Shown in pieces: positions 2,652 to 60,472 of a DNA stretch of 64,000 bases. The notes under the pieces are model-generated. The model worked only from the letters and a program-made list of their open reading frames with translations. It did no database searches and had not been told where the DNA came from. Made by a program: the position numbers and the translations under genes. The stretch comes from Ferruginibacter sp. (GTDB lineage: Bacteria; Bacteroidota; Bacteroidia; Chitinophagales; Chitinophagaceae), in assembly GCA_031392305.1 (NCBI GenBank), contig JANMVB010000125.1:2273-66272 (forward strand). The letters run 5' to 3'. Positions within the stretch are counted from its first letter, which is position 1, and the number at the start of each line of letters is the position of its first letter.

Positions 2652-2690
2652 CATCGTTGTGTCACTCACTTGTACCGCATACCTGTGTGG
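2652..2690 (+). repeat. REP-like element, copy 1 of 18
   Basis: CATCGTTGTGTCACTCACTTGTACCGCATACCTGTGTGG. Confidence 0.95.
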
Positions 2691-2821
2691 AGCATTTCTC
2701 ACGTGATAATTAGAAAGATAAAAGGCTCATTTAAAGCTGGACCTGTTGCTGGTATGCAAGCATGAACTTTTCCAACGCCGGATAAACAGTTTTAACTTTC
2801 CATCACTACGTAAATTTGCAA

Positions 2822-3013
2822 ATGAGAAAAATTCAATATGGTATTGTTGGGTTTGTAACGGGTATAATGCTCGGGCTATTGATAGGGCTTGCGGTAATGA
2901 AAATTTTTAAGCAGTTACAAAATTCGGCAGCACTTCCATTTGTATTTGGCATTATTGTAATCGCCTCGGCTATTACAGGAGTTTCTATTGGTATAAATAG
3001 GGCTAAAAGATGA
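2822..3013 (+). CDS. Small two-TM hypothetical membrane protein
   Basis: 63 aa, two hydrophobic helices; TAAATTTG box at 2811-2818 just before the ATG. Confidence 0.6.
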   Translation: MRKIQYGIVGFVTGIMLGLLIGLAVMKIFKQLQNSAALPFVFGIIVIASAITGVSIGINRAKR

Positions 3014-3087
3014 TAATTATCCGGCACTTAATTTTGGCTTCTTCAAAAGGTTTAGGCTCGTGCAAATTGTGATTAGTAAGTAAACAA

Positions 3088-3384
3088 TTAAAAATTACTG
3101 ATAACATAAAATCCCCCAATAACTAATGGTAAAGTAATTATTCCTAAAAAAATTAAATAGTCGGTTCTATATGGTTCTCTTGTAGTATATGATTTGATTA
3201 AAAAACCTAGGGCATAAATTAAACCCAGAAGAAATGAAATGAAAACAATTGCTATTGACGAAAAGTCACAAACCGGCGTTATATGCTTAATTATACTAAA
3301 ACAATAAAAAATAATAAAACTCCACCACAAAAAATATATCCCAAGTAAAAATGTTGATTTAGTATGTCTTTTTAAAATGTTCAT
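3088..3384 (-). CDS. Hypothetical membrane protein (cassette-like)
   Basis: 98 aa with three hydrophobic segments; bounded by GTAAG.. and ..CTTAC inverted cores. Confidence 0.6.
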   Translation of the reverse strand: MNILKRHTKSTFLLGIYFLWWSFIIFYCFSIIKHITPVCDFSSIAIVFISFLLGLIYALGFLIKSYTTREPYRTDYLIFLGIITLPLVIGGFYVISNF

Positions 3385-3673
3385 ATTGCCCTTACTATTT
3401 AAATTGACCTGAAACTGTTGTTGGAATAACAGTTGAATTTGACTTTATCATTTTAAAAAAATATTGTGTTAACGTCAGGGCTTTACGGTCGGTGGGGAAT
3501 TTTATAAACGTCCCTCGGCGACGAAAGCCCATATGAAAAACTAAAGTATAAAATATGCACTGAAGCTAGATAGTAAAAGTCGAACTGGGCCAACTGCTGC
3601 ATAGAATTACTGAAGATGATGGACGCTTTGCGCCCAGCTCCACTGCCGCAAAACCCCCTGTAAGCGGTAGTTT

Positions 3674-4285
3674 TTATTTATTCCATATTTTGTCAAAGTA
3701 GCTTGTATCTTCTTTTTGGTTTATATAATATGTCCAATTGGTTCTGTTGCTGAGTAAATAATTGCGACATAAGAATTCACTTTTGTTTGTGTCTGCCCAA
3801 ACTGTCAACCTGTACTCAATCGTTGGGTAAAATACCGAATCAACATTGCCACTTCTATAATCACTTACTTTACTTTTATTCCAGTCTTTAATAAACGTCT
3901 CTATTTGTTTTAAAGAAAGTAGTTTGGTTTGCTTAAAAATATTTGAAAACATCTGAACAGAATCAACAGTTTTTAAATCTATTTCTTTTTTGTCAGGTTT
4001 AATTTGAGAAAGTGAATTGTCGCAAATATTAAAAATAAGATAACTGGAATTGCCAGGCTGAAAAGTAATTGTGCAACTGTCTTTTTGAAAGCCGTTTTCA
4101 CCGAGAAATGTTTTGTCTTTATAGAGTGATAATGGATAGTAATGCAGTCCAACGGGTCCAAGACATTTGGATTTAACTATTTTGTAGCCGTTAATTTTCC
4201 ATTCTTGTACATCTTCGCATTTTGTTAAACCAAGATTACATGAACTAAAAAGTGTCGCCAAAAAAAGTATGTAGTATGTTTTCAT
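3674..4285 (-). CDS. Hypothetical lipoprotein (cassette-like)
   Basis: 203 aa; signal peptide with lipobox LFSSC. Confidence 0.7.
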   Translation of the reverse strand: MKTYYILFLATLFSSCNLGLTKCEDVQEWKINGYKIVKSKCLGPVGLHYYPLSLYKDKTFLGENGFQKDSCTITFQPGNSSYLIFNICDNSLSQIKPDKKEIDLKTVDSVQMFSNIFKQTKLLSLKQIETFIKDWNKSKVSDYRSGNVDSVFYPTIEYRLTVWADTNKSEFLCRNYLLSNRTNWTYYINQKEDTSYFDKIWNK

Positions 4286-4458
4286 TTTGTGTCACAAGAA
4301 ATTACCGCTTACGTTCATATTTCGTGATGATATGTGATTAGTTTACACAGACGTAAATATGTGCCTCAACAACTAAAATAATCCATTGCTTTAATTCAGC
4401 CAAATGACCTCTAAAAATTTCTTGTGACAATACTGCCAGTCAGCCGCCGATAAAAGCT

Positions 4459-4497
4459 CCACACAGGTATGTGGTACAAGGGAGTGACACAACGATG
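4459..4497 (-). repeat. REP-like element, copy 2
   Basis: CCACACAGGTATGTGGTACAAGGGAGTGACACAACGATG on + strand. Confidence 0.95.
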
Positions 4498-4548
4498 CTG
4501 CCATGAAAACAGATGCTGGTTAACAAAAAATTTTGAGATTAAAATATG

Positions 4549-6345: not shown

Positions 6346-6625
6346 TAATAACTGCAGCAACTTTTTAAAATAAGGCTGGCTGCAAATTTACACTGATTAG
6401 GGAAGAATAACGGGGGCGGAAATTAAATAAAGTATAAAAGGGACGAAGGTTAATAAAGTAGAAAAGGTAAGTGGGTTTTATAAAGTAAATAAAGTAGCCA
6501 TGTTGGAAGAAACCAACCTTAATAATTTATTTGTAGTAGCGCTATTTATTTATGGGGTTAAGGGATTGATGCAACTCGTATAATTCGTGCAATTCGTGTA
6601 ATTCGATTAATTCGTGTAATTGACG

Positions 6626-7942: not shown

Positions 7943-8060
7943 GATAACAAGCCTTCAGCTTTTTCTTTATAATTTTTGTTGGTGATATCGCTACTGTCGA
8001 ATTCTATCTAACTATCATGAAGGTAATTACTTAACATTTCTATAAACATGTTTTGTTTTA

Positions 8061-9401: not shown

Positions 9402-9441
9402 AAATTCAAAATATAAAGTATTCGTTAATCAAAAAAATACA

Positions 9442-11157: not shown

Positions 11158-11226
11158 GAAATCATTTTCAATGCAATAAAAAGTCTACTGAATTTTTTGT
11201 TAACGAGCTGAAGTTTTTCAATTAAA

Positions 11227-11265
11227 CATCGTTGTGTCACTCCCTTGTACCGCATACCTATGTGG
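11227..11265 (+). repeat. REP-like element, copy 3
   Basis: CATCGTTGTGTCACTCCCTTGTACCGCATACCTATGTGG. Confidence 0.95.
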
Positions 11266-11333
11266 AGCTTTACCTACAGGATACTTTGCCCATTGTAAGT
11301 TTTTAATTAAATTTGTTACATAAAAAATTGAAT

Positions 11334-11555
11334 ATGGATAATGTTGTGTTATATTCTAAGCTGGCAAATTTACCAGAACACATGAGGTTAGAAGTTTCGA
11401 ATTTTATTGACCTTTTACTAAGCCAGGCTAAAAAGAACAGAAAAAATAATTCTACATCTACACCAAAATTTGGAAGTGCAAAGGGTATGTTCATAATGAA
11501 GGAGGGTTTTAACGAACCATTAGCGGACTTTAAAGATTATATGACTAATGAATAA
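11334..11555 (+). CDS. DUF2281-like antitoxin
   Basis: LPE..R.EV.NFIDLL and PKFGSAKGMFIMKEGFNEPLADFKDY motifs; overlaps the PIN gene. Confidence 0.75.
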   Translation: MDNVVLYSKLANLPEHMRLEVSNFIDLLLSQAKKNRKNNSTSTPKFGSAKGMFIMKEGFNEPLADFKDYMTNE

Positions 11556-11931
11556 TCTCATAGATACACATGCGTTAATTTGGTTTTTAAATGGTGATAT
11601 TGATATTTCGCAAAAGGCAAGAAAAATTATCGAAGAGAGTGAAACCGTAAATTATATAAGCATTGCAAGTTTGTGGGAGATGTCAATAAAAATTAGCTTA
11701 GGCAAGCTTGAACTTAAAACTCCCTTCGCAAAAATTGCTGAAAAAATTGACAGTAATGGTTTTCAAATTTTACCAATAACATTTGAAGATACTTTAACAT
11801 TATCAGATCTACCCTTTCATCATAGAGACCCATTTGACAGGATTCTTATTTCTCAAAGCATAAATAACAAGCTATTAATTATTTCAAAAGACAAATATTT
11901 TGAAAGTTACGGTGTGCCATTAGCATGGTAG
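11548..11931 (+). CDS. vapC: PIN-domain VapC-family toxin
   Basis: LIDTHALIW, SIASLWEMSIK, HHRDPFDRILISQS motifs. Confidence 0.9.
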   Translation: MNNLIDTHALIWFLNGDIDISQKARKIIEESETVNYISIASLWEMSIKISLGKLELKTPFAKIAEKIDSNGFQILPITFEDTLTLSDLPFHHRDPFDRILISQSINNKLLIISKDKYFESYGVPLAW

Positions 11932-11991
11932 TAAACAGCATCAGGCAATATCCATTTCTATCAATCAAAATATTCCCGATCACTTCAATCA

Positions 11992-13442: not shown

Positions 13443-13448
13443 CGGGTG

Positions 13449-14273: not shown

Positions 14274-14387
14274 AGCCCCTGACCGCCGAAGCCCCCCTGC
14301 CCCCCGAAGGGAGGTTCTACAGAATGTGATTGCCTACTGTTTTGTAATGAGGTTATAATGAAGTGTAAGTATATTGTGGGCAATGCT

Positions 14388-14426
14388 CCACATAGGTATG
14401 CGGTACAAGGGAGTGACACAACGATG
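14388..14426 (-). repeat. REP-like element, copy 4
   Basis: Exact reverse complement of copy 3. Confidence 0.95.
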
Positions 14427-14506
14427 CTGCTCATTGCTTCACAGCCGGTACAATAAAAATTGTTTAAAAAATACTTCAGCATTTATGCTACAACAAGTTG
14501 GTTTGT

Positions 14507-17645: not shown

Positions 17646-17915
17646 TATAATCCATTAGTTAGTATTAACATTTTATGTTTGCCCAAACCATTCGTTTTTT
17701 GCTACCCTGATTTTCGATTCTATTTGTAAATTAAATTTCTATTTCCCCCCAATTCTTCCTACCCGGATTCGTTCAAAGAAATTTCAATTTATCAATGACC
17801 AACAGGCAAACTTCCTTTTGCAAAATATTTAATCAAATTTGCGAAAAGCCAGTGTTGTACAAGGAGCAAAATCGTGAACAAATTTTTTTTGTCCGTGCTG
17901 CCAGGCGATGTGGAT

Positions 17916-17954
17916 CATTGTTGCATCGCCCTCTTGTACATAAAACCAATGAGG
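17916..17954 (+). repeat. REP-like element, copy 5 (GCATCGC subtype)
   Basis: CATTGTTGCATCGCCCTCTTGTACATAAAACCAATGAGG. Confidence 0.9.
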
Positions 17955-18012
17955 AGCTTTAATTACATTATATGGAAAATCATGTACCCGGTTAATTTAT
18001 TCTTTGCAGAAT

Positions 18013-18066: not shown

Positions 18067-19092
18067 TTAATGTTGTATAAGCACCTTTATTTTTTTATCG
18101 TACCCATTTGCGTCTTTAATAGTCAGTATATATTCACCGGGCGCAATAGTAGAAGTATTCAAATCACTTGTTCCATTACTAATCTTACTTTTTAACACTA
18201 CCTGGCCCGACATAGCAGTTAACGTTGCTTCAGCATACCCGTTTGCACCGGTGAGGCTCACATACAGTCTGCCATTTTTAACAGGGTTCGGATAAGCATA
18301 AACCTGGGTAGTTTTACAATTAATAAATACCGGAAGTATTTTAGAATATTTATAAGCCCCATCCCTGTCAATCATTTTTAGCCGGTACAACACTTTCGCT
18401 GAAGTAACAGGTAAGTTCTTATCAATAAAATTATAAATAGCCTTAGCGTTACTGTTACCCTTTGCAGTTACCGTTCCCATTAATTTCCAATTAGAATTAT
18501 CTGTGCTGCCCCTTTCAATTTCAAACCGGTCGCTATTTATTTCAGTTTCAGTTATCCAGTTTAATACAGGCTGGCAATTTACTAAAGATGCATTAAAATT
18601 GGTGAGTGTTACAGGGGTGGTGTTTGTTACGGTAAGTCCAGCGCTGGATGTATTATTGGCTGTATTATCACCGGAAGGTGCCGGTCCATTGAATGTTAGA
18701 TTACCCAGAATTGAACCACCTCCATCAGCAGTTCCTTCAACTGCGATAAATGCAGTACGCGTTGTACCTGCTGGAATTGGATCAGTTGTGTTCGTAATCC
18801 TGATTACAGAACCATTGTTGGAAGTAATCGTCCAGCCTGCAGGTAAATTATGGCCTGAAACAGGTATAAAACTAATGTTTGCAGGAACACTTATTTGTGG
18901 CCTTACCTTATTTGCTACTATTGTGCCAGATGCAGAGTTATTGGTAACGTCAATCTGAAGAAAAATTGTTCCTCCCACATTTACTACTCCACTACTCCCT
19001 AGTACGATATTTAATGACGGGTCCTGTGCGGAAACGCCAACGAAAACAAAAACACTAACAAAAAGCAGGATTAACAATTTAAAAATTTTCAT
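18067..19092 (-). CDS. T9SS type-A CTD protein with N-terminal DUF11-like domain
   Basis: Signal peptide, GDNTANNTSS motif, PVTLTNF Ig domain, YPNP-type CTD. Confidence 0.85.
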   Translation of the reverse strand: MKIFKLLILLFVSVFVFVGVSAQDPSLNIVLGSSGVVNVGGTIFLQIDVTNNSASGTIVANKVRPQISVPANISFIPVSGHNLPAGWTITSNNGSVIRITNTTDPIPAGTTRTAFIAVEGTADGGGSILGNLTFNGPAPSGDNTANNTSSAGLTVTNTTPVTLTNFNASLVNCQPVLNWITETEINSDRFEIERGSTDNSNWKLMGTVTAKGNSNAKAIYNFIDKNLPVTSAKVLYRLKMIDRDGAYKYSKILPVFINCKTTQVYAYPNPVKNGRLYVSLTGANGYAEATLTAMSGQVVLKSKISNGTSDLNTSTIAPGEYILTIKDANGYDKKIKVLIQH

Positions 19093-19146
19093 TTTTTTAT
19101 TTTTAGTGAAAACAATTATTTAAAAGTATATGTTGCTATCGGAGAG

Positions 19147-22890: not shown

Positions 22891-23070
22891 TATTGAATAA
22901 AATGTTGTACCAGGCCCTTACCAAAATCTTATTCATTGCAAGTAATATTTTATTGTTTAATGAAAATAGTAAATCAGGTTCCTCCATCAACTAAAGTGGC
23001 CAAAGCATATAATTCACGATAAATAAATTGGGTAATAATTTTTTTGTCCATGCTGTAAAGCAATGGGCAA

Positions 23071-23109
23071 CATTGTTGCATCGCCCTCTTGTACCGCATA
23101 CCAATTGGG
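23071..23109 (+). repeat. REP-like element, copy 6 (GCATCGC subtype)
   Basis: CATTGTTGCATCGCCCTCTTGTACCGCATACCAATTGGG. Confidence 0.9.
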
Positions 23110-24050
23110 ATCTTTAATTGTGTTATTAAATAATAAAAAATTATTACCACTTTTGTAACATCCCGATTTTTAAGAAAGTGAGTAGGCCCGGCTTTTTTAT
23201 TTGGGTAGTGAACAAAACAACATCTCTAATTTATCTTTGCGCATTATATTTAAAAAGCCAATGGTATTAATTACAAAAAGGCTAACCCCTATGCAGACAT
23301 AGTAAAAGTTGCAATGATGCCCCGGATTATTTCTTTGCAAAAAAACATTTTTCAATTTTTTATCCTTTGTGCAAAATTACGCAGGCATATTTTTTTGCAA
23401 TATTTAAAATGCTTTGAGAAACATGACTCAATAAGAAAAGCAATTCAATCTAATCAATTATTATATTCAAAAAACAACACATCATATAGTAAGATAGAAC
23501 TATTACCCTTCCTTACTTTAAACACTTTATGAATGTTGCAAATTTTGAGTCTACTTCTTTTATTTTTTATATAAACGCACTTCTTTTTATTAGAAAAGTT
23601 TAATAATGTTTTCACTATTTGCCTTAACAATTTGATTCCTTTTTGGTAACATATCATTTTAACTTTTTGTTTTAGGTTTGCCTTCTAATTGATAATTGCA
23701 GATGAAATAATACCATCCAATTTTTAATTTTCCAATTTCCTGCATTCGTACTTATTCCCTGGTTGAAGACAATTTTCCGTATTGATTAAATCTTAACAAA
23801 CATGTTTTAATCACTCGTAAAAGAGTGACCTGATATCATTTATAAAAAATGGTAAATAATACTGCTATGACTTGTCGGTTACAAAAAATCGTTGCTTTAT
23901 TTCTACCAGGCCGATTGCCACACCCTTTATTTTTTTACCCGCAAAATTTTTAATTATTCAATTAAAACCAAATTCTCAAAATAAAAAAATCATCACCAAA
24001 AAAATGTAAATGAAAAAAAGTAATACTAAAAACACAAAAAAAATTAAAAC

Positions 24051-25913: not shown

Positions 25914-25939
25914 TCTTAAATACATTAAAACTAAAAAAA

Positions 25940-29845: not shown

Positions 29846-30015
29846 ATTTTTTCCTGTGATTTTTTATTTCAAATCAGTGTATCATAAATTCGTTTATGCT
29901 TCATTGATAGAAATGTGTACAAGGTTTTTTGATAGGATATTGAAGCAAATGGCATTTCCAATAAAAGTGAGATTTTGTAATTGCTTTTTTTAACCAACAT
30001 ATTATCATTGGCCGG

Positions 30016-30054
30016 CATCGTTGTGTCACTCCCTTGTACTACATACCAATGGGG
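30016..30054 (+). repeat. REP-like element, copy 7
   Basis: CATCGTTGTGTCACTCCCTTGTACTACATACCAATGGGG. Confidence 0.95.
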
Positions 30055-30194
30055 AACTTTAATTATGTTTTAAATAAAATGAAACCTGTATATTTTTTTA
30101 ATAAAATAATCTACGCTAATTTATTTCTGCAGTATAATTGCTTTATTATGTAACAGTGATCACAGCCGTTTAATTATGCTGGTGTTTTATTGTT

Positions 30195-30234
30195 CCACAT
30201 AGCTTAAAAAGTACAAGAGAGTGACACAACGATG
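30195..30234 (-). repeat. REP-like element, copy 8 (hairpin degenerate)
   Basis: GTACAAGAGAGTGACACAACGATG core. Confidence 0.9.
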
Positions 30235-30358
30235 TTTAATTGAAAAATAAATGCTTGTAAAAAAATAAATTTTATAAGGCAAACGAGATTGGATTACCAA
30301 TGCCAAAAATTAACTGGCATATTTTAAATAAACAACTCATAACTCATAACTGGTACAA

Positions 30359-34301: not shown

Positions 34302-34385
34302 TGAGCCAACATTTGGTGATACTATCAATAATGCACAAGTGAAAAAAAGAATTTTTTTTTGTCCGGGCTATGAAACAATGAGCAT

Positions 34386-34424
34386 CATCGTTGCATCGCC
34401 CTCTTGTACCAAATATCATTGGGG
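34386..34424 (+). repeat. REP-like element, copy 9 (GCATCGC subtype)
   Basis: CATCGTTGCATCGCCCTCTTGTACCAAATATCATTGGGG. Confidence 0.9.
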
Positions 34425-34615
34425 AACTTTAATTGCGTTTTAAATGATTGACTTTTCACAATACAATGTTCTGTAAATACCGCAGCCACAATTCTTTGGC
34501 CTAACCATGATAATTTAAAAAAACTCCATTGGTTTTCACCAGTAAGGAGTTTAGGTATTTTGGGAAATATAACATTGCCGGTTTAGTTTTTTGAGCCAAT
34601 CAGCAGGTAGCTATT

Positions 34616-35707: not shown

Positions 35708-36075
35708 ACTCGTAGTTTTTATAATTAATTATTTCATTATTAAATTAAAAAAGCAATTAATAGGATAAGTAATTTGTTACTTATTTAGCTAGCCGCACCA
35801 GGTAAATTTTGTGTTTATTCCAGACGTTGACTTGCCTGTTTTCGGTAGGAGTTATCGGAGATTTCGTTGATAAAATTAGCAGTTATTTTTATCAGGCAAG
35901 ATTAAGTAATTGTTTTGTTTGTGTTACATAACAACAAATTTCAAATAAACAAACTACTTTCATTTTCCAAATTAATACTCGAATTATTTTGTTGAGTATT
36001 GCTGTTGCTGCTGATGTAAAATCAGAACTCCTTACCCTTATAAATTACAGAGTTATTCGCAAATTGAAAGCGCTG

Positions 36076-36113
36076 CCATATATTCAAAAGTACAAGAGGG
36101 CGATGCAACGATG
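36076..36113 (-). repeat. REP-like element, copy 10 (GCATCGC subtype)
   Basis: GTACAAGAGGGCGATGCAACGATG core. Confidence 0.9.
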
Positions 36114-36463
36114 CTTATTCAGTGCTCAGTTGCCTGGACAAAAAAAAGAAAAGGTATGGGTTGTAGTTTGCGGTAAATCAGGAGTCTGAAAATATTGAAA
36201 AGGCACAGGTGAACTTTTATTTACAGGTTTTCCTTACTTAACTATACTGCCAGGGAGTATGTTGGATATGCTTTAGCAGAAAGACAAATATTATTTGCCA
36301 TAAGGGTATCTATAGGCAGGTAAAATAATATCGGCATAATTAAAAACAGCACGATAAACCAGGAGGGTAATTGCTATTTAAATAGTAAACATTTGGTGTA
36401 GTAATACCTTGTATGAATTATAATTAATTAATTGCCTGAATGTATTATGCCTGGCGTATAGGC

Positions 36464-36962
36464 AATAAAAAAAGGGCCAGCCCCTTACGCTGACCCCTTA
36501 ACTTACACATGAATCTACCTTACTATCTTTGATGTTATTTATTGAAATATTCCAATTCTATCTGTCAATATTTTCTTGATTTGTAATAGTAACAGTAAAA
36601 GCAATAAAAAGGGCCAGCCCTTACACTGGCCCTTAACTTACACATGAATCTACCTTACTGTCTTTATATCTTTCTTTTATAAGGGTTATGTTATTTGTTC
36701 TGCAATAGCTCCTTCTCTTATCTGTACCACTGTAAAGGGATGAATAAAATTTTAAAAAAGGACCAGCCCCTTACGCTGGCCCTTTAACTTACACATGAAT
36801 CTACCTTACTGTCTTTTAATTCTTTTATTGATGCTTTGTTAATTTGCCGGTTAATACATTTAATGCTTTTTGTTACTTTAAATGAGTACAGGTAAAATTT
36901 TAAAAAAGGACCAGCCCTTACACTGGCCCTTTAACTTACACATGAATCTACCTTACTGTTTT
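36464..36962. repeat. Four-unit array of ~62-bp repeats with unique 72-88 bp spacers
   Basis: Invariant TTAACTTACACATGAATCTACCTTACT at 36498, 36633, 36784 and 36931, each next to a GG(G/A)CCAG..CTG(G/A)CC hairpin and A-tract. Confidence 0.95.
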
Positions 36963-40252: not shown

Positions 40253-40359
40253 GATTGCAAAGTTAGATGAAAAGATAATAACCGTTGAAGGCAACTGGCA
40301 TAGTACTCCGTTTACATATTTCTTACTTTGGTTAGCGTGAGAGCACGTTGGTAAAGATC

Positions 40360-40398
40360 CCCATAGGTATTCAGTACAAGGTGAGTGACACAACTATG
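40360..40398 (-). repeat. REP-like element, copy 11
   Basis: CCCATAGGTATTCAGTACAAGGTGAGTGACACAACTATG. Confidence 0.9.
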
Positions 40399-40432
40399 CT
40401 TAATTGAAACACAAATGCTTGTATTCAAAAAT

Positions 40433-44107: not shown

Positions 44108-44253
44108 TTTAATCCTTTCGCCTGTTACGGAAATTTAAATAATTTTTACTGCTGCAAGTTAAGGAACACTTTACTCTTTTTAGGTTTCTACCGCCATTTG
44201 TAATTCACAATACTTTGCGTTTATTCTTGTCCAAACAAAGAAGCCTTGGTCAT

Positions 44254-44292
44254 CATCGTTGTGTCACTCACTTGTACCGCATACCTATGTGG
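44254..44292 (+). repeat. REP-like element, copy 12
   Basis: CATCGTTGTGTCACTCACTTGTACCGCATACCTATGTGG. Confidence 0.95.
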
Positions 44293-44449
44293 GTCATTTC
44301 CCACAATATACATTTGCCTACCATTAATTGCTTTTCAAAATGCTCATCAATGTAAAAATTGTAAAAAATTAGACCTCGGGTTTTTCAAATAAGGGTATTA
44401 AAAAAGGCCATCCTTCAGGACAGCCTTAAATTATTTGACAGTTTTAAAA

Positions 44450-44905: not shown

Positions 44906-45754
44906 ATGTCAAGCCTTACTATCACTACCATACAAACGAACCTTGCCTGGGAAAATAAAGCTGCTAACCTCCGCATGCTGAAAGACAAAATAAATGAAGC
45001 AGGTGCAAAAACAGAAGTGGTGGTTTTGCCGGAGATGTTTAGTACCGGTTTTAGTATGCAGGCACCTTTACTGGCCGAAACAATGGACGGAGAAACAATT
45101 GCCTGGATGAAAGAAATGGCATCAACAAATAAAATAATACTAACCGGCAGTGTAATCATTAAAGAAAATGAGCAATACTTTAACCGCCTCATCTGGATGC
45201 TGCCCAATGGTCAATATGGATATTATGACAAACGCCATTTATTTACTCTTGGGAAGGAACATGAATATTACAGCCCCGGCAACAAACGTCTTATAGCATC
45301 CGTAAAAGGTTGGAAAATAAATCTGCAGATTTGTTACGATCTCCGTTTTCCGGTATGGGCAAGAAACCGCATTATAGAAGAGGAATTACCTTATAAGGAA
45401 AGCCAATTGATTGAAGCACCTGATGGGCAACCTATTGCCACGCTTCGGCCAGAGTATGACTTGTTGATTTACGTTGCCAACTGGCCCGAAAGAAGGAGCC
45501 ATGCATGGAAAACATTGTTGTGTGCCCGGGCTATCGAAAATCAATGTTATGTGGTGGGTGTAAACAGGGTAGGCAAGGATGGGCACAATAATAATCACAG
45601 TGGCAACAGCCTGGTAATTGATCCATTTGGTGAAGTATTATACCACATGGCAGATGAAGAAGATGTCGCAACCACTACGTTATATAAAGAAAAGCTGGAA
45701 GAGGTGAGGACAAAGCTGCCTTTTTGGAAAGATGGAGATAATTTTATGATATAA
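44906..45754 (+). CDS. Carbon-nitrogen hydrolase (YafV/Nit2 omega-amidase-like)
   Basis: LPEMF, YDKRHLF, ICYDLRFP, VANWP, ARAIEN motifs. Confidence 0.9.
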   Translation: MSSLTITTIQTNLAWENKAANLRMLKDKINEAGAKTEVVVLPEMFSTGFSMQAPLLAETMDGETIAWMKEMASTNKIILTGSVIIKENEQYFNRLIWMLPNGQYGYYDKRHLFTLGKEHEYYSPGNKRLIASVKGWKINLQICYDLRFPVWARNRIIEEELPYKESQLIEAPDGQPIATLRPEYDLLIYVANWPERRSHAWKTLLCARAIENQCYVVGVNRVGKDGHNNNHSGNSLVIDPFGEVLYHMADEEDVATTTLYKEKLEEVRTKLPFWKDGDNFMI

Positions 45755-45864
45755 TAATAATTTAACGCTTTCAATACTTTGCAAGCAAGGGGTAAAATAG
45801 TGAAATTAAATTCCTGATAATTTTCAAAATCAATTGGTATTTTATTTATAACGCAATTAAAGAT

Positions 45865-45903
45865 CCCCAATGGTATGCGGTACAAGTGAGTGACACAACG
45901 ATG
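45865..45903 (-). repeat. REP-like element, copy 13
   Basis: CCCCAATGGTATGCGGTACAAGTGAGTGACACAACGATG. Confidence 0.95.
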
Positions 45904-45984
45904 ATGCCCATGGCTGCTTTTCGTTTGGACAAAAAACCATGACTTACTTTTTAAACCCTTGTGGTGTAATTGTATTTACTCCCA

Positions 45985-47475
45985 TTATTTAGGTTTTGCA
46001 TTAATCATTTCCATTACCATTTCCATTTTCCGATCAATGCCTTTTCTTACTCCTTCTACCGTGGGGAGAACATAAATATCCGGCACCACCCCCCTTCCGT
46101 TTTTAGGTACATGATTATATTGTACCAGCTTAAATAATGGCAGCCTCACTCTTAATTTAGTGATGGGCAAAGTAATATCTGGTATCAGCAGGCCACTATT
46201 GCCATGCCAGCCACCGCCGGTTTCTTCACCCACTAATGTTACATTCTCCTGCCCTTTTACCGCATTGCAAAATAAAGTTGACGCAGAAAATGTTGGCCCG
46301 TTGGTTAAAACATATACATCACCATCAAAATGGTTTCGTTCTCTTGGTTTAAAATAATGCCGCTCATAATAACCAAAATGATAAAGATTGTCTTTTTGTT
46401 TTTTGGTCATAAAAAATAAGCCGATATTATTAAATAATCCATGGTTTATATATTTTGTGTAGGGCCTTAATGATTTAGTTACGGCATAACTCGTATCAGC
46501 TACTTTAAATTTTGTTTTGCGTATAAATTTTGTAAGCAGCACATACATACCCACATCTCCGCCGCCATTACTGCGTAAATCAAGTACCAGGTTTTGTACC
46601 TGTTGCTGCCTCAATTTTCTAAAAGACTCTTTAATAAATATCCTCAACCGTATGCCATCTGCTTTACTAAAAGTATTAAGTGACATAGTTGCAGTTTTGC
46701 CCGTACTGTCAATTTCAAGTGAGCGCACAAATAACCTTCTTTGTTTGCTGGTTAGCTTTTTAGGCTTTGTGGCTTGCCGGGCAATTTGTTGTTTTCTTGC
46801 TGAATCTGTTATTGGCGTAAAGAGGGGTAACAATGCCGACTTTTCTTTTCCTGTACTATCAATATATTGTACCCGGTAATTTTTATAAATACCAAAAATA
46901 TTTCTATGATAAAAAGGAAAATTACTACTAAGGCGGGTGAAGTTTACATTATCCGCATATCCATCCAGCGGCAGGTATTCAAACATTTTTTGCACGAGTT
47001 GTTTATTGCGTATTCCGTTTATGGAGGTAATCAACATACCTCTTTTAATGAGGGAATCTTTTCTGTTAAGGTTAGCTGTTACCACCATGGTATCTCCCCA
47101 TACTCTCATCAGCAGCGGAAATGAAGGTGTTCCTTTGTTTCTTATAAACCTGCCCCACTTTTTACTCATGCCAACACTTGTATGGCCGCAGCGTACTTTT
47201 TGTGTAAGGGGTGCCAGTATTTTCCAGCCAAACTGTAGTTCCGTCATCGAATCGCCGATATGATTATACAGGCTGTCGAAGTAATAGTTCATACTATCTT
47301 TTGTTGTGTACCAGTAAAGTGCCGGATGTTTTTTTTCAAGTATATCCCGAAGCAATGAATAATCCTGCTGCAGCTCCTGCTTAGTGAATTTTTTGGAGGG
47401 ATTATAATTTGTAACAGCACACCCGGTAAACAGTACCATTGAAATGATGAGGAATAAAAAATTTGCTTTTTGCAT
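45985..47475 (-). CDS. S41-family peptidase (lipoprotein)
   Basis: LDLRSNGGG, TFSAST, VGEETGG, GVVPD motifs; lipobox FTGC. Confidence 0.85.
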   Translation of the reverse strand: MQKANFLFLIISMVLFTGCAVTNYNPSKKFTKQELQQDYSLLRDILEKKHPALYWYTTKDSMNYYFDSLYNHIGDSMTELQFGWKILAPLTQKVRCGHTSVGMSKKWGRFIRNKGTPSFPLLMRVWGDTMVVTANLNRKDSLIKRGMLITSINGIRNKQLVQKMFEYLPLDGYADNVNFTRLSSNFPFYHRNIFGIYKNYRVQYIDSTGKEKSALLPLFTPITDSARKQQIARQATKPKKLTSKQRRLFVRSLEIDSTGKTATMSLNTFSKADGIRLRIFIKESFRKLRQQQVQNLVLDLRSNGGGDVGMYVLLTKFIRKTKFKVADTSYAVTKSLRPYTKYINHGLFNNIGLFFMTKKQKDNLYHFGYYERHYFKPRERNHFDGDVYVLTNGPTFSASTLFCNAVKGQENVTLVGEETGGGWHGNSGLLIPDITLPITKLRVRLPLFKLVQYNHVPKNGRGVVPDIYVLPTVEGVRKGIDRKMEMVMEMINAKPK

Positions 47476-47566: not shown

Positions 47567-48739
47567 TCATTTACTTGCTGTTTCAATTTTACTTTGTTCT
47601 TCTTCTATAATTTTTCTTAAATCTTCTTCGTTTGGCAAATTGATCATGTACTTATTTACAAATACCTTTTGTGCCAGACCTGTTGTAGCATATTTTACGA
47701 GGTTTTCGTTTTTATTTGCACAGAGAATTATCCCAACCGGTATATTATCTCCTTCGTTGGTTTCATTGTCTTTATAATAGTTGAGATACATATTCATTTG
47801 CCCTGCATCGGCATGGGTAAATTCTCCTAATTTTAAATCTACCAAAACGTTGCACCTCAATACCCGATGGTAAAATACAAGATCAATGTGATAATGGGTG
47901 TTATCGAAAGTAATTCGTTTTTGGCGAGCTTCAAAGCAGAAGCCCCTGCCCATTTCTAATAAAAATGTTTGCAGATGGTTTATGATGGCTTGCTCCAAAT
48001 CTGATTCACTATATATTTCTTCTTCTTTTAAGCCTAAAAACTCTAACATGTATGGATTACGAAAAATATCCTCTGGCAAAAGCTTTTGCTGATTATTGTT
48101 TTTTTCTAAAACAGCTTTCTTATTGGTGCTTAATCCTGTACGTTCAAACAGCATACTATTCATTGCACGTTGAAGCTCCCTGACAGACCAACTGTTTTTT
48201 ATAGCTTCCATTTCATAAAAGCTACGTTTTAGTTGTTCATCAGCTTTTAGCAATTCGATAATATGTGTAAAACTTAACTGATTAATAAGTTTGTCCATTT
48301 CCAACTCAGATTTTGCAGTCACTGACTGCAAAATCCTGGAGGGTGGTTCATTTTCATTTCCTATAGAATCATTTCTTGTCCCTATGAATTTTGCGGTCAG
48401 TGACCGCAAAATTTCAATGTTCTGAAAATCAGTGAGATACGATTTTGCGGTCACTGACCGCAAAATGTTGGGATAGGCAATGTAAAAGTCTTTGCACAAA
48501 TACAAATGCCGCTCACGAATTTGTTTGAAATCTTGTTTTTCAAGTCGTTTAGCTATTTCTTTCAATACCTTCTGCCCATACTCAGCTCTGTCTGCTCCGT
48601 TAAGTTCATATTCGGCTATATAAAAACCAAACAGCCAGTTGCGTAGGGTAAGGGCTGTATTTACCTGGCGCTGCGCCTGCTGTTTAAAATAAAGTTGGGT
48701 TTCGCCAATGAGTGAAACCAGTTCATTTATAGTTGCCAT
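47567..48739 (-). CDS. DUF1016/YhcG PD-(D/E)XK nuclease-like protein
   Basis: NWLFGFYIAEYE, LSFTHIIEL, WSVRELQR, FLLEMGRGF, IDLVFYH, VDLK, GQMNMY motifs. Confidence 0.9.
   Translation of the reverse strand: MATINELVSLIGETQLYFKQQAQRQVNTALTLRNWLFGFYIAEYELNGADRAEYGQKVLKEIAKRLEKQDFKQIRERHLYLCKDFYIAYPNILRSVTAKSYLTDFQNIEILRSLTAKFIGTRNDSIGNENEPPSRILQSVTAKSELEMDKLINQLSFTHIIELLKADEQLKRSFYEMEAIKNSWSVRELQRAMNSMLFERTGLSTNKKAVLEKNNNQQKLLPEDIFRNPYMLEFLGLKEEEIYSESDLEQAIINHLQTFLLEMGRGFCFEARQKRITFDNTHYHIDLVFYHRVLRCNVLVDLKLGEFTHADAGQMNMYLNYYKDNETNEGDNIPVGIILCANKNENLVKYATTGLAQKVFVNKYMINLPNEEDLRKIIEEEQSKIETASK
48310..48466. repeat. Three perfect palindromes inside the DUF1016 gene
   Basis: ATTTTGCRGTCA-S-TGAYYGCAAAAT at 48310-48334, 48387-48413 and 48442-48466. 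Confidence 0.9.
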
Positions 48740-48778
48740 AATAATTAATGCTACATTCCCAAAACATAATTCATACAA

Positions 48779-49810: not shown

Positions 49811-49841
49811 TATTTATTTGGTTTATATGGTGGGTAAAGAT

Positions 49842-49880
49842 CCACAATGGTATTCAGTACAAGAGTGCGACGCAACGATG
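49842..49880 (-). repeat. REP-like element, copy 14 (GCGTCGC subtype)
   Basis: CCACAATGGTATTCAGTACAAGAGTGCGACGCAACGATG. Confidence 0.9.
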
Positions 49881-49938
49881 TTGAGCCTTGCTTCATAGCC
49901 CGGACAAAAATATTATTATATTTATTGACTTGCAGCTT

Positions 49939-50712: not shown

Positions 50713-50802
50713 AATGGCGCAAAGATAGTAAAATCAGTTTCTACCACCTGCTTACAAAACCTGCTGTTGCGTTAATTTAATATTGCTAAATGAAGATGAT
50801 AT

Positions 50803-51792: not shown

Positions 51793-51890
51793 ACAATTTG
51801 TTTTTATAAAGTTACCAGCCAATATTTAACGAACCATACAATTTTGAATACTGGTATAAAAAATCGTATTTCGTACACAAATAAAATGCA

Positions 51891-53138: not shown

Positions 53139-53217
53139 AGTTCCAAGCAATTTATGCGTTTACTTGCAGGCATTCAACTATTAATTATTATTGTTCCAGC
53201 CAGGAAGCTTTGGTCAA

Positions 53218-53256
53218 CATCGTTGTGTCACTCACTTGTACCGTATACCTATGTGG
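53218..53256 (+). repeat. REP-like element, copy 15
   Basis: CATCGTTGTGTCACTCACTTGTACCGTATACCTATGTGG. Confidence 0.95.
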
Positions 53257-53324
53257 AACTTTAATTACGTTATATTCAGCCAACATTTAAAATACTTTAT
53301 TTTTACCGCCTTTAAAATAATTAA

Positions 53325-55498: not shown

Positions 55499-55593
55499 TA
55501 ATTGTTGGTGGGAAAGATGGCAAAAAAAGCTTTTATAATTTAAAGTAATACCGATCTTCATTCATGCAAAAAGCCGCTGCAATTTACAGCGAA

Positions 55594-55632
55594 CCACAAT
55601 GGTATGACGTACAAGTGAGTGACACAACTATG
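55594..55632 (-). repeat. REP-like element, copy 16
   Basis: CCACAATGGTATGACGTACAAGTGAGTGACACAACTATG. Confidence 0.9.
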
Positions 55633-55758
55633 TTTAATTGAAATACAAATGTTTGTTACAAAATTTTAATTACATATAACAATCTCATTATGACAATTGA
55701 AAGATTGAATAAAAAAGCAGCTTCGTAGAAGACCTCCCCTTTAGGGGACGGGGGTTCC

Positions 55759-57672: not shown

Positions 57673-57899
57673 CCTCGCAGAAATTAAATGAACAAACCAG
57701 GTAAATTTAAAGCCGGTTTAATGCGGGAAGTTTGGATGGCGTAAAATAACTTTTAATGAACCATTCAAAAAAAGTTTCAGAAGTAATGGTACAATAAATA
57801 TAAGGGTTTTATTTGCATAATTCAATGACTGTTAAAGTGTAGGGAAGGGAAATCCGATAGAGAGTTTATCATATAATTCCCGGGCACTCTTTTAGGTTA

Positions 57900-58748
57900 C
57901 TAAAATTTCCACTTATTCTTCTTCTTGGTCAGTTCCTTTATTGTTTGTTTTATTGTTGGTTTTGGTTTATTTACTTCAGCAATAAATTGCTTGTCTGCAA
58001 ACTCAATAAACCAAATGTCAAAATCCGCTATATAGCTATTCATTGTCTTATCAATGTGATAGTTAATTTCAACATCTAATGTGTCAACCTTTTAGATTAA
58101 ATGGGCTATTTGTTTGTGCCTTAGGGGAAGATACCATTTTATGGTTGGTTCGTCAGTCCAGTTTTCAAAGTTTACGTACAATACCTCTGCATTTTCAAAA
58201 TCTTTTTTTAATGGTTTAGATGTTTGGTTAATTCTTGTCAAGGCTATGAGTGTGTGTCCAAACTCAGTATCTTTCAACACTTTCAATACAACTGCCCCGC
58301 CATATTTATTAGAAGAAAGTTTGAATGTCAAACAGTCGCCTTTTTCAAATGGCGGCTGTTTAATTATTTTTTTCCTTCTTGATTTTGCTTTAGTTCGTTC
58401 CTTTTGTAAATCTCCTAAAAACTTCTCAAGGGCTACTTTTCTTTTTTTTAAGTCTTTTTCACTTGCATCAAGTCGTTTCCAAACTTCAATGTCATAGCCA
58501 CTTTCAATAATTGTCTTTGCTTTATCTAAAACTTTATTGTCAAGTTGTTTGCATTCCCATTGTGCTTTGGCCAAGGCAAACCAAAAATTATTACTGTCGT
58601 CCGGCTCATTAATAATTTCCTGATTATTTTTAATCAGCTTCTTTGAAATTTCTAATACTTCTAAACCGTCATTGTACAGCTCGAAGAATTCGTCGTAAAT
58701 GTCTGCGAAAGTGTCGTTAGATGAAATTCCTGTACCCCAAGCTCCCAT
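57900..58748 (-). pseudogene. DUF4259-like protein with an in-frame TAA at 58092-58094
   Basis: MGAWGTG..SND..AD N-terminus; the same frame stays open 63 codons past the TAA to a TAG at 57900-57902. Confidence 0.6.
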
Positions 58749-58837
58749 AAGTTTATAGTGTCATTTTAGAGTTGCTGCCAATTAATTACACTCCAGGCTA
58801 ATTTTCACCATTGCCGATTCACCATTCACCCCTCCAC

Positions 58838-60205
58838 CTAATCATCCTTTTTTTCAAACAGGTCTTTTTTATCCACCACTTTCACCTTGTCTTTTTCTTT
58901 TAATAATTTGCTAATTACATCATAAGGCCCCGTAACAACTTCATCGCCTTCTTTAATCCCTTCAGTAATTTCTATGTAATTAATATCCTGGATGCTTGTT
59001 TTTACTTTTGCCTTTTTTACAAGCCCTTCTTTATCAACTAAAAATACCAGAACCTCCAATTCATCCGGGTCCGAAACCGCTTTATCCATTTTATCCTTTT
59101 CATCATCTGCCACCACTTTTTTTGCTGCACCGGCAGTATCACTTTTCTCCCTGGTGGTAACAGCATTAATGGGCACACTCAAGGCATTGGTATGTGTTTT
59201 AGTCTGTATATCTGCACTGGCACTCATCCCCGGCCTGAACGGAAAAAAACCTTTACCCAACAGGTCGGCATAACTTGAAGGCAACAGCCTGATATAAACT
59301 TTATAATTAGTAACATCCGTTGTAGTGTTCGACATGGCCGACTGCGATGCAGCACCATTATTACTACTCGCAATCTGTGTTACAATCCCTTTAAATTTAC
59401 GGTCGTTATACGCATCCACTGTAACAACACCGCTATCGCCGAGGTGTACTTTTGGTATATCGCTTTCACTTACATCCACCCTAATTTCAATTTTGGCCAT
59501 ATCAGCAATCCGCAGCATTTCTGTACCTGCCATCATATTGCTGCCTACTACCCGTTCTCCTTTTTTTACATTTAGCAAACTCACCACACCATTCATGGGA
59601 GCAATTACTGCAGTACGACCTAAATCTTTATTGGCTTTTGCCAGGCTTGCCTGGGCACTTTGCACTGCAGCCTGTCCGCCACGGATGCCCTGTTTGGCAG
59701 CGTTGTAATTTGCCTGCGCACTTCTGTAATTAGCTTCCGCCACATTAAATTCATTCCGGCTTATTACCTTTTCATCAAACAATTGCTTTTGCATTTCAAA
59801 AGTTTTTTGGGCCTGGTCCAGTTGTGCTTTCAGAGCGTCTAATGCAGCCTGTGAGTTTGCCACCTGTGCCTGGCTTTGGGCCACACCACTTGCTGCCTGG
59901 TTGGCCTGTATGCTGTAGATGTCTGCATAAATGCGGGCCACCACCTGGCCTTTTTTTACACTGTCGCCTTCCTGCACAGTCAGTTCAGTTATTTCGCCGC
60001 TAATATCCGGGCTCACCTTTACTTCTATTTCCGGGTAAATTTTACCACTGGCATTTACTATTTCTATGATGGTCCGTTTCAGCGCTTTTTCAGCCGTAAC
60101 TTTTGTGCCTTCTTTTTTACCAAAAACGCCGGCCGCTTTTAAAACACCCAGGGTAGCAATCAAAATTACCAGCCCGATTAAAATCCATTTTACAGTTTTG
60201 CTCAT
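58838..60205 (-). CDS. Efflux periplasmic adaptor (MacA/HlyD-like)
   Basis: ASGKIYPE, ISGEITEL, coiled coil, IAPMNGVV, FRPGMSASADI motifs. Confidence 0.88.
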   Translation of the reverse strand: MSKTVKWILIGLVILIATLGVLKAAGVFGKKEGTKVTAEKALKRTIIEIVNASGKIYPEIEVKVSPDISGEITELTVQEGDSVKKGQVVARIYADIYSIQANQAASGVAQSQAQVANSQAALDALKAQLDQAQKTFEMQKQLFDEKVISRNEFNVAEANYRSAQANYNAAKQGIRGGQAAVQSAQASLAKANKDLGRTAVIAPMNGVVSLLNVKKGERVVGSNMMAGTEMLRIADMAKIEIRVDVSESDIPKVHLGDSGVVTVDAYNDRKFKGIVTQIASSNNGAASQSAMSNTTTDVTNYKVYIRLLPSSYADLLGKGFFPFRPGMSASADIQTKTHTNALSVPINAVTTREKSDTAGAAKKVVADDEKDKMDKAVSDPDELEVLVFLVDKEGLVKKAKVKTSIQDINYIEITEGIKEGDEVVTGPYDVISKLLKEKDKVKVVDKKDLFEKKDD

Positions 60206-60273
60206 ATCTTAATCTGTTTTTTGTTTTCTGCTTGTTGTTTTCTTATTGTCCCGGCAGAAGGCGCACTATTCAA

Positions 60274-60312
60274 CATCGTTGTGTCACTCCCTTGTACCGC
60301 ATACCTATTTGG
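60274..60312 (+). repeat. REP-like element, copy 17
   Basis: CATCGTTGTGTCACTCCCTTGTACCGCATACCTATTTGG. Confidence 0.95.
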
Positions 60313-60433
60313 ATCTTTAATTGCGTGATGTGAAAAAATGAAGCATTAAAATTATTCGTTCATCATCAATTCGCCCCTGTACCCTGAAGGGGTAATAATT
60401 ATTACAGCTATCATTTAAAACACAATTAAAGAT

Positions 60434-60472
60434 ACCCATTGGTATTCAGTACAAGAGGGCGACGCAACGATG
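60434..60472 (-). repeat. REP-like element, copy 18 (GCGTCGC subtype)
   Basis: ACCCATTGGTATTCAGTACAAGAGGGCGACGCAACGATG. Confidence 0.9.

Follow-up and report, generated by a model that had tools for sequence, protein, structure and literature searches.

What kind of element fills 18 gaps between genes in one 64-kb stretch of Ferruginibacter chromosome, and what protein might act on it? The stretch (64,000 nt of contig JANMVB010000125.1, here called the window) comes from a freshwater-sediment metagenome, and its initial annotation described a dense family like repetitive extragenic palindromes (REPs), with a hairpin, that an HUH enzyme might cut. We find that the constrained part of the element is a 24-bp core and not any hairpin. 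Our preferred but tentative reading is that the element is a modular, nonautonomous repeat found throughout the Chitinophagaceae, that it resembles REPs and BIMEs (bacterial interspersed mosaic elements) in its genome lifestyle, and that its core may be recognized as duplex DNA by a recombinase- or transposase-like protein acting in trans.

An asymmetric core within a modular repeat

The repeat is as dense as first described. An nhmmer profile built from the window copies, searched against the window and reported up to E=10, returned exactly 18 matches, each at E<=1.5e-12 and none weaker. The 22-mer CTTGTACCGCATACCTATGTGG alone has 10 window sites at <=3 mismatches versus 0 in 100 shuffles. 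At the level of the 24-nt core, 17 copies fall within <=6 substitutions, and 1 more, at 40375, carries a 1-nt insertion. The strands are used equally (9 plus, 9 minus), and the intergenic placement was confirmed for 18 of 18 copies, all of which lie between long open reading frames (ORFs). The copy at 40375 alone overlaps an ORF, one of 114 aa with a TTG start that is probably spurious. The window is ordinary Bacteroidota chromosome, with proteins carrying type IX secretion system (T9SS) sorting tails, SprB repeats, dnaX, thiL, a 2-oxoacid dehydrogenase E2, and an efflux pump, and homologues of its ThiL carry the names Ferruginibacter or Chitinophagia. A Pfam search found no transposase or recombinase gene in the window.

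The element is longer than the 38 to 40 bp originally assigned to it. Similarity extends from an oligo-T ~35 nt 5' of the core to ~35 nt 3' of the core, or ~95 bp, and the layout from 5' to 3' is oligo-T, CCRGC box, a semiconserved spacer of ~19 nt, the 24-bp core, and a 3' module. The oligo-T has 4 to 9 T's and a terminal G and always abuts the 5' end. The core consensus, CATCGTTG-YRTCRC-YCN-CTTGTAC, agrees with the one written initially and is asymmetric, its left and right arms being neither complementary nor inverted repeats of each other. The two ends of a single copy are likewise unrelated, and there are no terminal inverted repeats. In the window genome the 3' module reads ACC-WWTGKGG-AnCTTTAATTRYGTT, and the follow-on sequence that was said to occur often (GGAnCTTTAATTRYGTT type) is indeed present, in ~10 of the 18 copies. 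Other genera have in common only the 5' module, oligo-T through core, of ~60 bp; the 3' module is lineage specific and in some genomes is joined to a different left part.

The core comes in several classes. Class A reads GTGTCACTC(A/C/T)C, class B GCATCGCCCTC, and class C GCGTCGCACTC, and the 164 family members used for covariation and stem counts comprise 129, 15, and 19 of these, respectively, and 1 GTA-T-CAC variant. Additional, more diverged core classes are present. The proposal that the central heptamer switches as a unit was correct, as the states were GTG-T-CAC (129), GCG-T-CGC (19), the asymmetric GCA-T-CGC (15), and GTA-T-CAC (1), and mixed halves numbered 0. The switch does not, however, reflect a 3-bp stem with a 1-nt loop, which is ruled out. 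Moreover, the dyad state changes jointly with positions outside the dyad and, in class B, also with the upstream flank, and common descent therefore accounts for part of the switch. The dyad GYR-T-CRC is meaningful all the same, given the break points described below, though not as a fold.

Conservation is concentrated in the core. Among class A copies of one genome, pairwise identity was 0.91 to 0.99 in the core, 0.45 to 0.53 in the T-run, 0.34 to 0.43 in the spacer (0.64 in a Flavihumibacter metagenome-assembled genome, or MAG), and 0.25 to 0.29 in the distant flank, taken as background. The class A values were equal between genera, and the 3' module alone was more alike within two lineages. 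The 18 window cores hold 5 changes over 432 positions, with no degenerate copies. No near-identical pair of full-length copies was found in any sampled genome, and the copies therefore do not have the look of a recent burst. Either the core of each copy is maintained, or the core is the sole part under recognition.

The hairpin fared less well. The structure CCRCATA-CC-TATGTGG, placed directly after CTTGTA, can be drawn for ~7 window copies if a G-T pair and a loop of 2 to 4 nt are allowed, but it is not a feature of the family. Over the 164 members, the best stem in the 34 nt 3' of the core was no better than in shuffled sequence, and single copies folded at z scores between -2.0 and +0.2 relative to shuffles (8 strands). 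A structured RNA was rejected for folding at the shuffle level, for having no Rfam match, and for showing by eye no consistent box-core pairing across classes. A small protein or peptide gene was rejected on six-frame stop profiles, which have no consistently open frame with a fixed start and stop. Unrelated ends and flanking direct repeats at the control level spoke against a miniature inverted-repeat transposable element (MITE) with terminal inverted repeats, and a tRNA-related element was rejected as the window has no tRNA genes.

Paired copies and the centre of the core

How neighboring copies are oriented is the most unexpected result. For comparison, the exact core was scanned for in one genome per species, and the at least 105 stretches obtained are the basis of the comparison loci (L numbers), in which ORFs are crude gene calls. 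Choosing loci for an exact core inflates the density estimate, but orientation statistics could not be created by such a selection. Neighboring copies in the window and the other genomes were distributed as follows, where tail-to-tail pairs have their oligo-T ends outward:

0-400 nt apart: tail-to-tail 14, head-to-head 1, direct 0
400-1200 nt apart: tail-to-tail 8, head-to-head 0, direct 1
1.2-3.4 kb apart: tail-to-tail 18, head-to-head 17, direct 7
above 3.4 kb apart: tail-to-tail 1, head-to-head 12, direct 14

Below 1.2 kb there are thus 22 tail-to-tail pairs, 1 head-to-head pair, and 1 direct pair. In the window, 7 of 7 tail-to-tail intervals (112 to 3112 nt) are shorter than 6 of 6 head-to-head intervals (3260 to 6654 nt; p=6e-4), and the same difference was obtained independently in the other genomes (p=5e-7). 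Direct neighbors compare with inverted neighbors as 8 to 58 below 3.4 kb and as 14 to 13 above it (Fisher p=1e-4).

Tail-to-tail pairs bracket 0 to 3.4 kb, usually with one housekeeping gene inside. ORF translations read by eye identified purC, accD, cysK, era, holA, and, inside the nuo and atp operons, nuoH and atpF-atpH, respectively, among the bracketed genes, which have no common functional theme. The spacers of close doublets measure 2 to 390 nt and are not palindromic, and the genes enclosed by two pairs have the same orientation as in relatives. Pair partners resemble each other no more than random copies do and are often of different classes, and A-C doublets made up 5 of 10 against ~23% expected. 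The same acetyltransferase gene is bracketed in both L070 and L076. Both members of the nuoH bracket are present in L040, and neither is present in the syntenic partners L067 and L104. Long duplexes are predicted between paired cores. The 18 window copies, with the pairs they form, are as follows:

Copy 1: 2616..2711, plus strand; core 2652-2675, class A (GTGTCACTCAC); pairs tail to tail with copy 2, as the left member
Copy 2: 4439..4534, minus strand; core 4474-4497, class A (..CTCCC); oligo-T side 15 nt past the stop of an ABC transporter gene
Copy 3: 11191..11285, plus strand; core 11227-11250, class A; pairs with copy 4, as the left member
Copy 4: 14368..14462, minus strand; core 14403-14426, class A; with copy 3 brackets vapBC-like genes, an outer membrane protein gene, and an EngB-type GTPase gene
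Copy 5: 17880..17973, plus strand; core 17916-17939, class B (CATTGTTGCATCGCCCTC)
Copy 6: 23035..23128, plus strand; core 23071-23094, class B; flanks GGTAATAATTTTTT / AAAAAATTATTACC form a 14-nt inverted repeat, as if an AT hairpin were the insertion target
Copy 7: 29981..30075, plus strand; core 30016-30039, class A; with copy 8 forms a close tail-to-tail doublet
Copy 8: 30177..30270, minus strand; core 30211-30234, class A (..CTCTC)
Copy 9: 34350..34445, plus strand; core 34386-34409, class B; with copy 10 brackets one gene for a T9SS-tail protein
Copy 10: 36053..36148, minus strand; core 36090-36113, class B
Copy 11: 40342..40432, minus strand; core ~40375-40399, class A with the 1-nt insertion; its oligo-T doubles as the T-tract of the E2 acyltransferase gene's intrinsic terminator
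Copy 12: 44220..44312, plus strand; core 44254-44277, class A; at a synteny break; with copy 13 brackets the CN-hydrolase gene
Copy 13: 45843..45939, minus strand; core 45880-45903, class A; in the 231-nt gap between the S41 and CN-hydrolase genes
Copy 14: 49822..49916, minus strand; core 49857-49880, class C (GCGTCGCACTC); fills the 129-nt gap between SuhB and ThiL
Copy 15: 53183..53275, plus strand; core 53218-53241, class A; pairs with copy 16
Copy 16: 55580..55664, minus strand; core 55609-55632, class A (CATAG...); with copy 15 brackets a kinase gene (APH and RapZ C-terminal domains) and a nucleotidyltransferase gene
Copy 17: 60238..60331, plus strand; core 60274-60297, class A; with copy 18 forms a close tail-to-tail doublet between OEP and HlyD-type efflux genes
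Copy 18: 60413..60507, minus strand; core 60449-60472, class C/B hybrid (GCGTCGCCCTC)

The two ORFs between copies 1 and 2 encode a lipoprotein and a membrane protein. Within the bracket of copies 3 and 4, a small ORF followed by a PIN-domain gene (11313-11931) is apparently a VapBC-type toxin-antitoxin pair. Separately from the 18 copies, the window contains other repeated DNA. Four tandem units of ~147 bp (36468-36978), each with a GC-rich hairpin and a T-run on the minus strand (AAGGGGTCAGCGTAAGGGGCTGGCCCTT+T-run), have no convincing ORF and may be small-RNA or tiny-peptide genes. An inverted repeat of 472 nt (18627-19098 and 25934-26405), 82% complementary, flanks 6.8 kb that include a TonB-dependent receptor gene. 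Its arms overlap the 5' ends of opposed genes for a T9SS sorting-tail protein and an SprB-repeat protein, and the repeat is a possible inversion substrate.

The dyad centre marks a genuine break point. Cores in L008, L017, L052, L087, L097, and L101 are split between GYR(T) and (T)CRC by hairpin inserts of 33 to 50 nt. The inserts are of at least 3 kinds: a TCCCGA(G/T)...TCGGGA family, an AT-rich hairpin, and a TTTTCTTTTCTTCC...GGAAGGAAAGAAAAGGA hairpin. In L087 and L052, 3' modules beginning with CTTGTAC are fused to an unrelated left part, and a 39-nt tandem triplication in L099 (27-160) starts inside the core (TCACTCACTTGTAC...GAAGAA). The junctions observed lie either in the centre of the core or where CTTGTAC begins.

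We note that one of the inserts belongs to a second repeat family of the related genomes, truly hairpin shaped, of the form TCCCGA(T/G)-loop-(A/C)TCGGGA with a short 5' tail. It occurs as stand-alone, terminator-like hairpins and also as insertions at the exact centre of the 24-bp core. Its sites are L008 2047-2090; L011 4500; L016 2404; L017 549 and 3898; L023 324; L025 1979; L052 3753-4015; L058 4677; L082 489; L087 72, 426, and 7602; and L101 4816. The spacers between paired elements hold further GC-rich repeat families, for example the TTCGTCATTGCGAGGAGGAACGACGAGGCAATC and CCACGGTCTGACCTTTGGTGCCGACCG hairpins (L089 4430-4640; L070 6740-6830), and the intergenic regions of these genomes are mosaics of several repeat types.

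Gain, loss, and distribution of copies

Copies of the repeat are extra DNA added between resident genes. Six relatives keep the gene order AKR-SuhB-ThiL-S41-CN hydrolase, with ThiL at ~90% protein identity and DNA at ~75 to 80%, and each presents 12 to 21 kb without a copy, save for one weak match in L106. The gap between SuhB and ThiL, 129 nt and nearly all element in the window, measures 53 to 105 nt in these element-free relatives. Similarly, the S41 and CN-hydrolase genes overlap tail to tail in relatives and are 231 nt apart in the window, where copy 13 lies between them. L110, whose ThiL is 98% identical, has the same copy 14 at the same place. Synteny with the relatives ends at copies 12 and 15. 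A CN-hydrolase search for closer relatives with empty sites found none above 76% identity.

Copies are also gained and lost between species. The initial annotation had called for a comparison of filled and empty sites, and both kinds were found: among element-bearing genomes, 7 orthologous gaps were testable, of which 6 were empty and 1 was filled. Some sites are common to two genomes (L003/L024, L034/L073, and L070/L076), and two orthologous sites are occupied by different core classes in different species. Direct matches in the flanks were no commoner than in mismatched controls, and thus no target duplication of >=7 nt was detected, duplications of 2 to 5 bp being beyond the reach of the test. 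Inverted repeats in the flanks did not exceed mismatched controls as a general feature, with copy 6 as a single exception. Clustering of the ORFs beside 181 copies gave T9SS-tail proteins and syntenic orthologues as the only recurrent families.

Two further repeats were seen around thiL. Between the thiL and S41 genes of the element-free relative L111 (2912-3170), a 48-nt tandem repeat of ~4 to 5 units (CTTCTATGTTACCTATGTACCTATGTGGTCAAAAAGCTTAACAAAAGA) has ACCTATGTGG in common with the 3' module of the window copies. A YhcG/DUF1016 nuclease-like gene (ORF 47567-48778, minus strand) sits between thiL and the S41 gene in the window and in the 98% relative, not in six other relatives, and holds three copies of a perfect 25-nt palindrome, ATTTTGCGGTCASTGACCGCAAAAT (48310-48466).

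The family is concentrated in one bacterial group. All but one of the at least 105 stretches with the exact core are labeled Chitinophagaceae/Chitinophagales or carry only a broader Bacteroidota-level label. Among the matches listed are MAGs labeled Ferruginibacter, Segetibacter, Flavihumibacter, and Ilyomonas, the isolates Ferruginibacter paludis and Polluticaenibacter yanchengensis, and as the lone label of another type, L061, a contig of a MAG labeled Methylophilus rhizosphaerae. The family profile gave 18 matches in the 64-kb window, 1 weak match in 118 kb of syntenic relatives, and 191 in 769 kb of loci from other genomes. Density is ~1 copy per 3.5 to 9 kb, with 1 per 3.5 kb in the window, and a genome perhaps holds on the order of a thousand copies, a figure extrapolated from the window density without a known genome size. 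In the source metagenomes, the summed k-mer depth of the core was hundreds to >1000x that of flanking single-copy DNA. The source and public metagenome runs and a soil RNA-seq run were covered as contigs, which end at the repeat. Public-metagenome contigs do so at window positions 43656-44319, 45648-46311, and 60256-60900 (runs X3, X13, and X1), where depth is 100 to 1000x that of the flanks. Contigs of the soil RNA-seq run contain the element with its flanks, although they are strandless and may include DNA.

The repeat family is apparently previously undescribed, as had been suspected. Rfam 15 gave no match at gathering score in the 64-kb window, and the surroundings of copy 15 gave chance-level hits only (E>1). 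Plasmid and viral-contig searches gave no match to the element. In the literature, the core sequence string had only irrelevant matches, and keyword searches gave no description of the family. The element is also unlike the Bacteroidetes RAYT-associated REPs of Table S1 of PMC6006769 (RAYT, REP-associated tyrosine transposase), and the supplement of that paper has no Chitinophagaceae entry and no CTTGTAC string. A dCas12f-sigmaE system (PMC13472631) was rejected as an explanation, as it has few guide-matched targets per genome and not a repeat of a thousand copies.

What may act on the core

Our preferred, tentative explanation of the repeat is an enzyme that acts at the core. On this view, a dedicated protein of the recombinase or transposase type, encoded elsewhere, would recognize the 24-bp core as duplex DNA and would break and join DNA at the core centre GYR-T-CRC, and the three core variants would represent separate specificities. 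Copies would recombine with each other, which would delete direct neighbors and shuffle left and right modules into new combinations. The arrangement that is stable, and probably functional, would be the tail-to-tail pair, oligo-T outward, over 0 to 3.4 kb and usually one gene. An enzyme breaking and joining at the dyad centre would produce the split cores, the swapping of modules, the loss of direct neighbors, and the break points of rearrangement.

Several points weigh against this reading. There is no candidate enzyme: the window has no transposase or recombinase, and no recurrent neighbor family that might supply one adjoins the copies in 105 loci. No recently copied, near-identical pair gives a sign of ongoing mobility, and insertion boundaries are unreadable at the ~75 to 80% DNA identity of the nearest element-free relatives, which are too distant. 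The arms of the core are not inverted repeats, unlike those of classical recombinase sites. Recombination alone leaves the preference for tail-to-tail over head-to-head pairs unexplained, and a recombinase leaves unexplained why unrelated partners surround one gene. A core conserved in place at about a thousand loci is equally compatible with a site of host function. Finally, the oligo-T may be part of the target rather than of the element. Shared TTATTG variants among copies suggest that it belongs to the element, but six copies (copy 11 and those of L020, L028, L044, L046, and L047) have as their T-run the T-tract of a canonical terminator, and these, together with copy 6, argue for the target.

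Several of the same observations bear on other accounts. The core, the phased oligo-T, and the CCRGC box could instead form a host architectural or polar protein-binding site that spread long ago and is now selected, with inward pairs serving as a loop, topological barrier, or roadblock. We consider this rather unlikely, though the core is kept in place amid decayed flanks with no signal of recent copying, and conserved blocks at fixed spacing with variable spacers between them are typical of a composite binding site. Convergent pairs are favored over divergent ones, and this asymmetry is the main argument for a polar binding protein. Partners from unrelated subfamilies indicate that pairing is not a by-product of duplication, the acetyltransferase bracket is kept in two species and the nuoH members are jointly missing in L067 and L104, and copies are tolerated within the nuo and atp operons. 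Nonetheless, syntenic relatives have almost no copies, and the function is therefore not essential; the bracketed genes are without a theme, no protein is known, and a binding role alone leaves the origin of about a thousand 60-bp insertions unexplained. A stricter form would have a polar protein bind the asymmetric core so that convergent pairs, installed by a mobile element and kept by selection, become insulated or looped units the size of a gene. That form would yield the 22:1 excess of tail-to-tail over head-to-head pairs at distances below 1.2 kb, as well as unrelated partners and in-place conservation, and we regard it as improbable. Recombinase and polar binding could both apply, by analogy with the REPs of E. 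coli. The original proposal, a REP-type repeat (or REPIN, an inverted REP doublet) processed as single-stranded DNA by an HUH (Y1) enzyme, whether a RAYT, an IS200/IS605 TnpA, or an IS91-like protein, that would recognize a hairpin and nick at CTTG, has lost its structural basis, as no hairpin is conserved, and we find it doubtful. High copy number, intergenic placement, and the lack of terminal inverted repeats and of target duplications of >=7 nt agree with it, as do doublets that are inverted in REPIN fashion (14 of 15 below 400 nt are tail to tail) and the CTTGTAC junctions in L087 and L052. Several core variants occupy one genome, much as several REP variants (Y and Z) coexist in the genome of E. 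coli. Bacteroidetes moreover carry RAYT subclasses 2.4 and 2.6, with REPs described as atypical (PMC6006769). Those listed for subclass 2.6, however, are GC-rich hairpins of 8 to 10 bp with a GCTRG- or CTGG-type foot (PMC6006769), unlike our element, whose consensus lacks the GT[AG]G/CGTC tag, as the initial annotation had said, and any GCTRG-type tag. The linked HUH gene that the annotation proposed to search for did not appear in the window by Pfam, and a motif scan found 0 HUH...Y ORFs among ~1,700 ORF segments in ~1 Mb of family DNA including the window, a weak test given that a RAYT would be single copy. Strands are used equally and orientation alternates, whereas IS200/IS605 elements typically show a replication-linked bias, and the TCCCGAT-loop-ATCGGGA repeat of the same genomes is a better candidate for a RAYT substrate.

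Readings at the level of RNA, of DNA uptake, or of ordinary expression signals are less likely. If sense and antisense cores around a cistron paired into a duplex of >=24 bp, RNase III could cut it and thereby set the stability of the cistron, as the stems flanking rRNAs are cut by RNase III. Inverted pairs around single cistrons, including nuoH and atpF-atpH inside operons, the long duplexes predicted for paired cores, and the soil RNA-seq contigs would suit such a scheme. Head-to-head pairs would give the same duplex, however, yet they are missing at short range, many pairs enclose genes of both strands or lie between genes that converge, partners of different classes pair imperfectly, single copies are common, and the RNA contigs have the limits already given; we hold this to be quite unlikely. 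An uptake signal maintained by biased uptake and recombination, like the DNA uptake sequences (DUS) of Neisseria or the uptake signal sequences (USS) of Pasteurellaceae, is very unlikely. The density, the use of both orientations, a core that is invariant across a bacterial family with dialect-like variants, AT tracts at a fixed distance from the core, and an intact core amid drifting flanks all resemble one. A 24-nt core with a 60-bp patterned flank, however, is not repeatedly reachable by point mutation, and copies are insertions; the element is never inside genes, a strict pair grammar would be unexpected, and element-free relatives have no alternative abundant motif in ~118 kb. To an ordinary promoter, 5' leader, or terminator motif of the lineage we give hardly any credence. 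Copies number about one per operon, 13 of the 18 window copies have a gene end ahead of their oligo-T side, and six copies coincide with terminator T-tracts. Orientation to genes is nevertheless near random (49 sense and 40 antisense in codirectional gaps, with 24 copies in convergent and 16 in divergent gaps), hairpins beside the T-run are as frequent as in controls, and in the window the T-run coincides with a terminator scan in copy 11 only. By eye, there is no fit to Bacteroidetes -33/-7, sigma-54, or extracytoplasmic function spacing, and copies inside nuo and atp operons and relatives without the element also speak against such a motif.

Where the repeat stands among known systems is a separate matter. 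The annotation's placing of it with REP-kind interspersed repeats holds for density and intergenic position, and like the REP/BIME-RAYT systems of enterobacteria and Pseudomonas it has hundreds to thousands of short intergenic copies, several variants per genome, inverted doublets, mosaic modules, a repeat that is kept where flanks are not, and long persistence within a bacterial family. Unlike them, its core is nonpalindromic without a stable hairpin or GTAG/CGTC tag, no RAYT was found, and the unit is longer, at 60 to 95 bp with phased oligo-T and box. Pairs lie 0 to 3.4 kb apart and bracket genes, whereas members of REPIN doublets are tens of nucleotides apart. The atypical REPs of Bacteroidetes TnpA-Y1 subclass 2.6/RAYT group 5 come from the same phylum, lack GT[AG]G, and are described as having weaker structure (PMC6006769), but with their listed hairpins and foot they are resembled more by the TCCCGAT...ATCGGGA hairpins of the related loci than by the 24-bp-core element. 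MITE-type repeats (Correia, ERIC, RUP, and BOX) are likewise ~100 bp, intergenic, variably present, and, in the case of BOX, modular. Our element differs in having no terminal inverted repeats, no target duplication of >=7 nt, no known parent insertion sequence, and conservation in an internal 24-bp core instead of the ends. A miniature element derived from IS200/IS605 would match the lack of a long duplication and an oligo-T abutting the 5' end but not the lack of conserved hairpins and strand bias. DUS/USS compare in density, freedom from a fixed gene orientation, AT tracts at fixed spacing, and family-wide conservation; the element is far longer, is inserted DNA, is never within genes, and obeys a strict pair grammar. 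Close doublets recall Bacteroidetes invertons in being 24-bp inverted repeats that flank 2 to 390 nt with a break point at the core centre, but most pairs flank whole housekeeping genes that are not inverted relative to relatives, and we know of no invertons with thousand-fold copy number. The convergent CTCF loop-anchor sites of vertebrates, also asymmetric sites of ~20 bp whose convergent orientation defines pairs, are an analogy only, as they belong to another domain of life and to a scale of 100 kb rather than kilobases, and the element has no binding protein or extrusion evidence. In sum, we regard the element as a variant interspersed repeat outside the REP/RAYT family, as it shows no palindrome, tag, or MITE characters, and no linked RAYT was found in the ~1 Mb scanned.

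Few features of bacterial genomes are understood as poorly as interspersed repeats of the REP sort, and what is known of them comes almost entirely from Proteobacteria. Here, a family that is abundant in widespread soil and freshwater Bacteroidota breaks the rules of REPs, having neither palindrome nor tag. It is a practical cause of fragmented Chitinophagaceae MAGs, and it marks break points of rearrangement. The defined break point at the core centre and the inward pairs around single genes, even within nuo and atp operons, are properties that can be tested. Ultimately, an invariant, asymmetric core of 24 bp should permit the binding protein or enzyme to be fished out.

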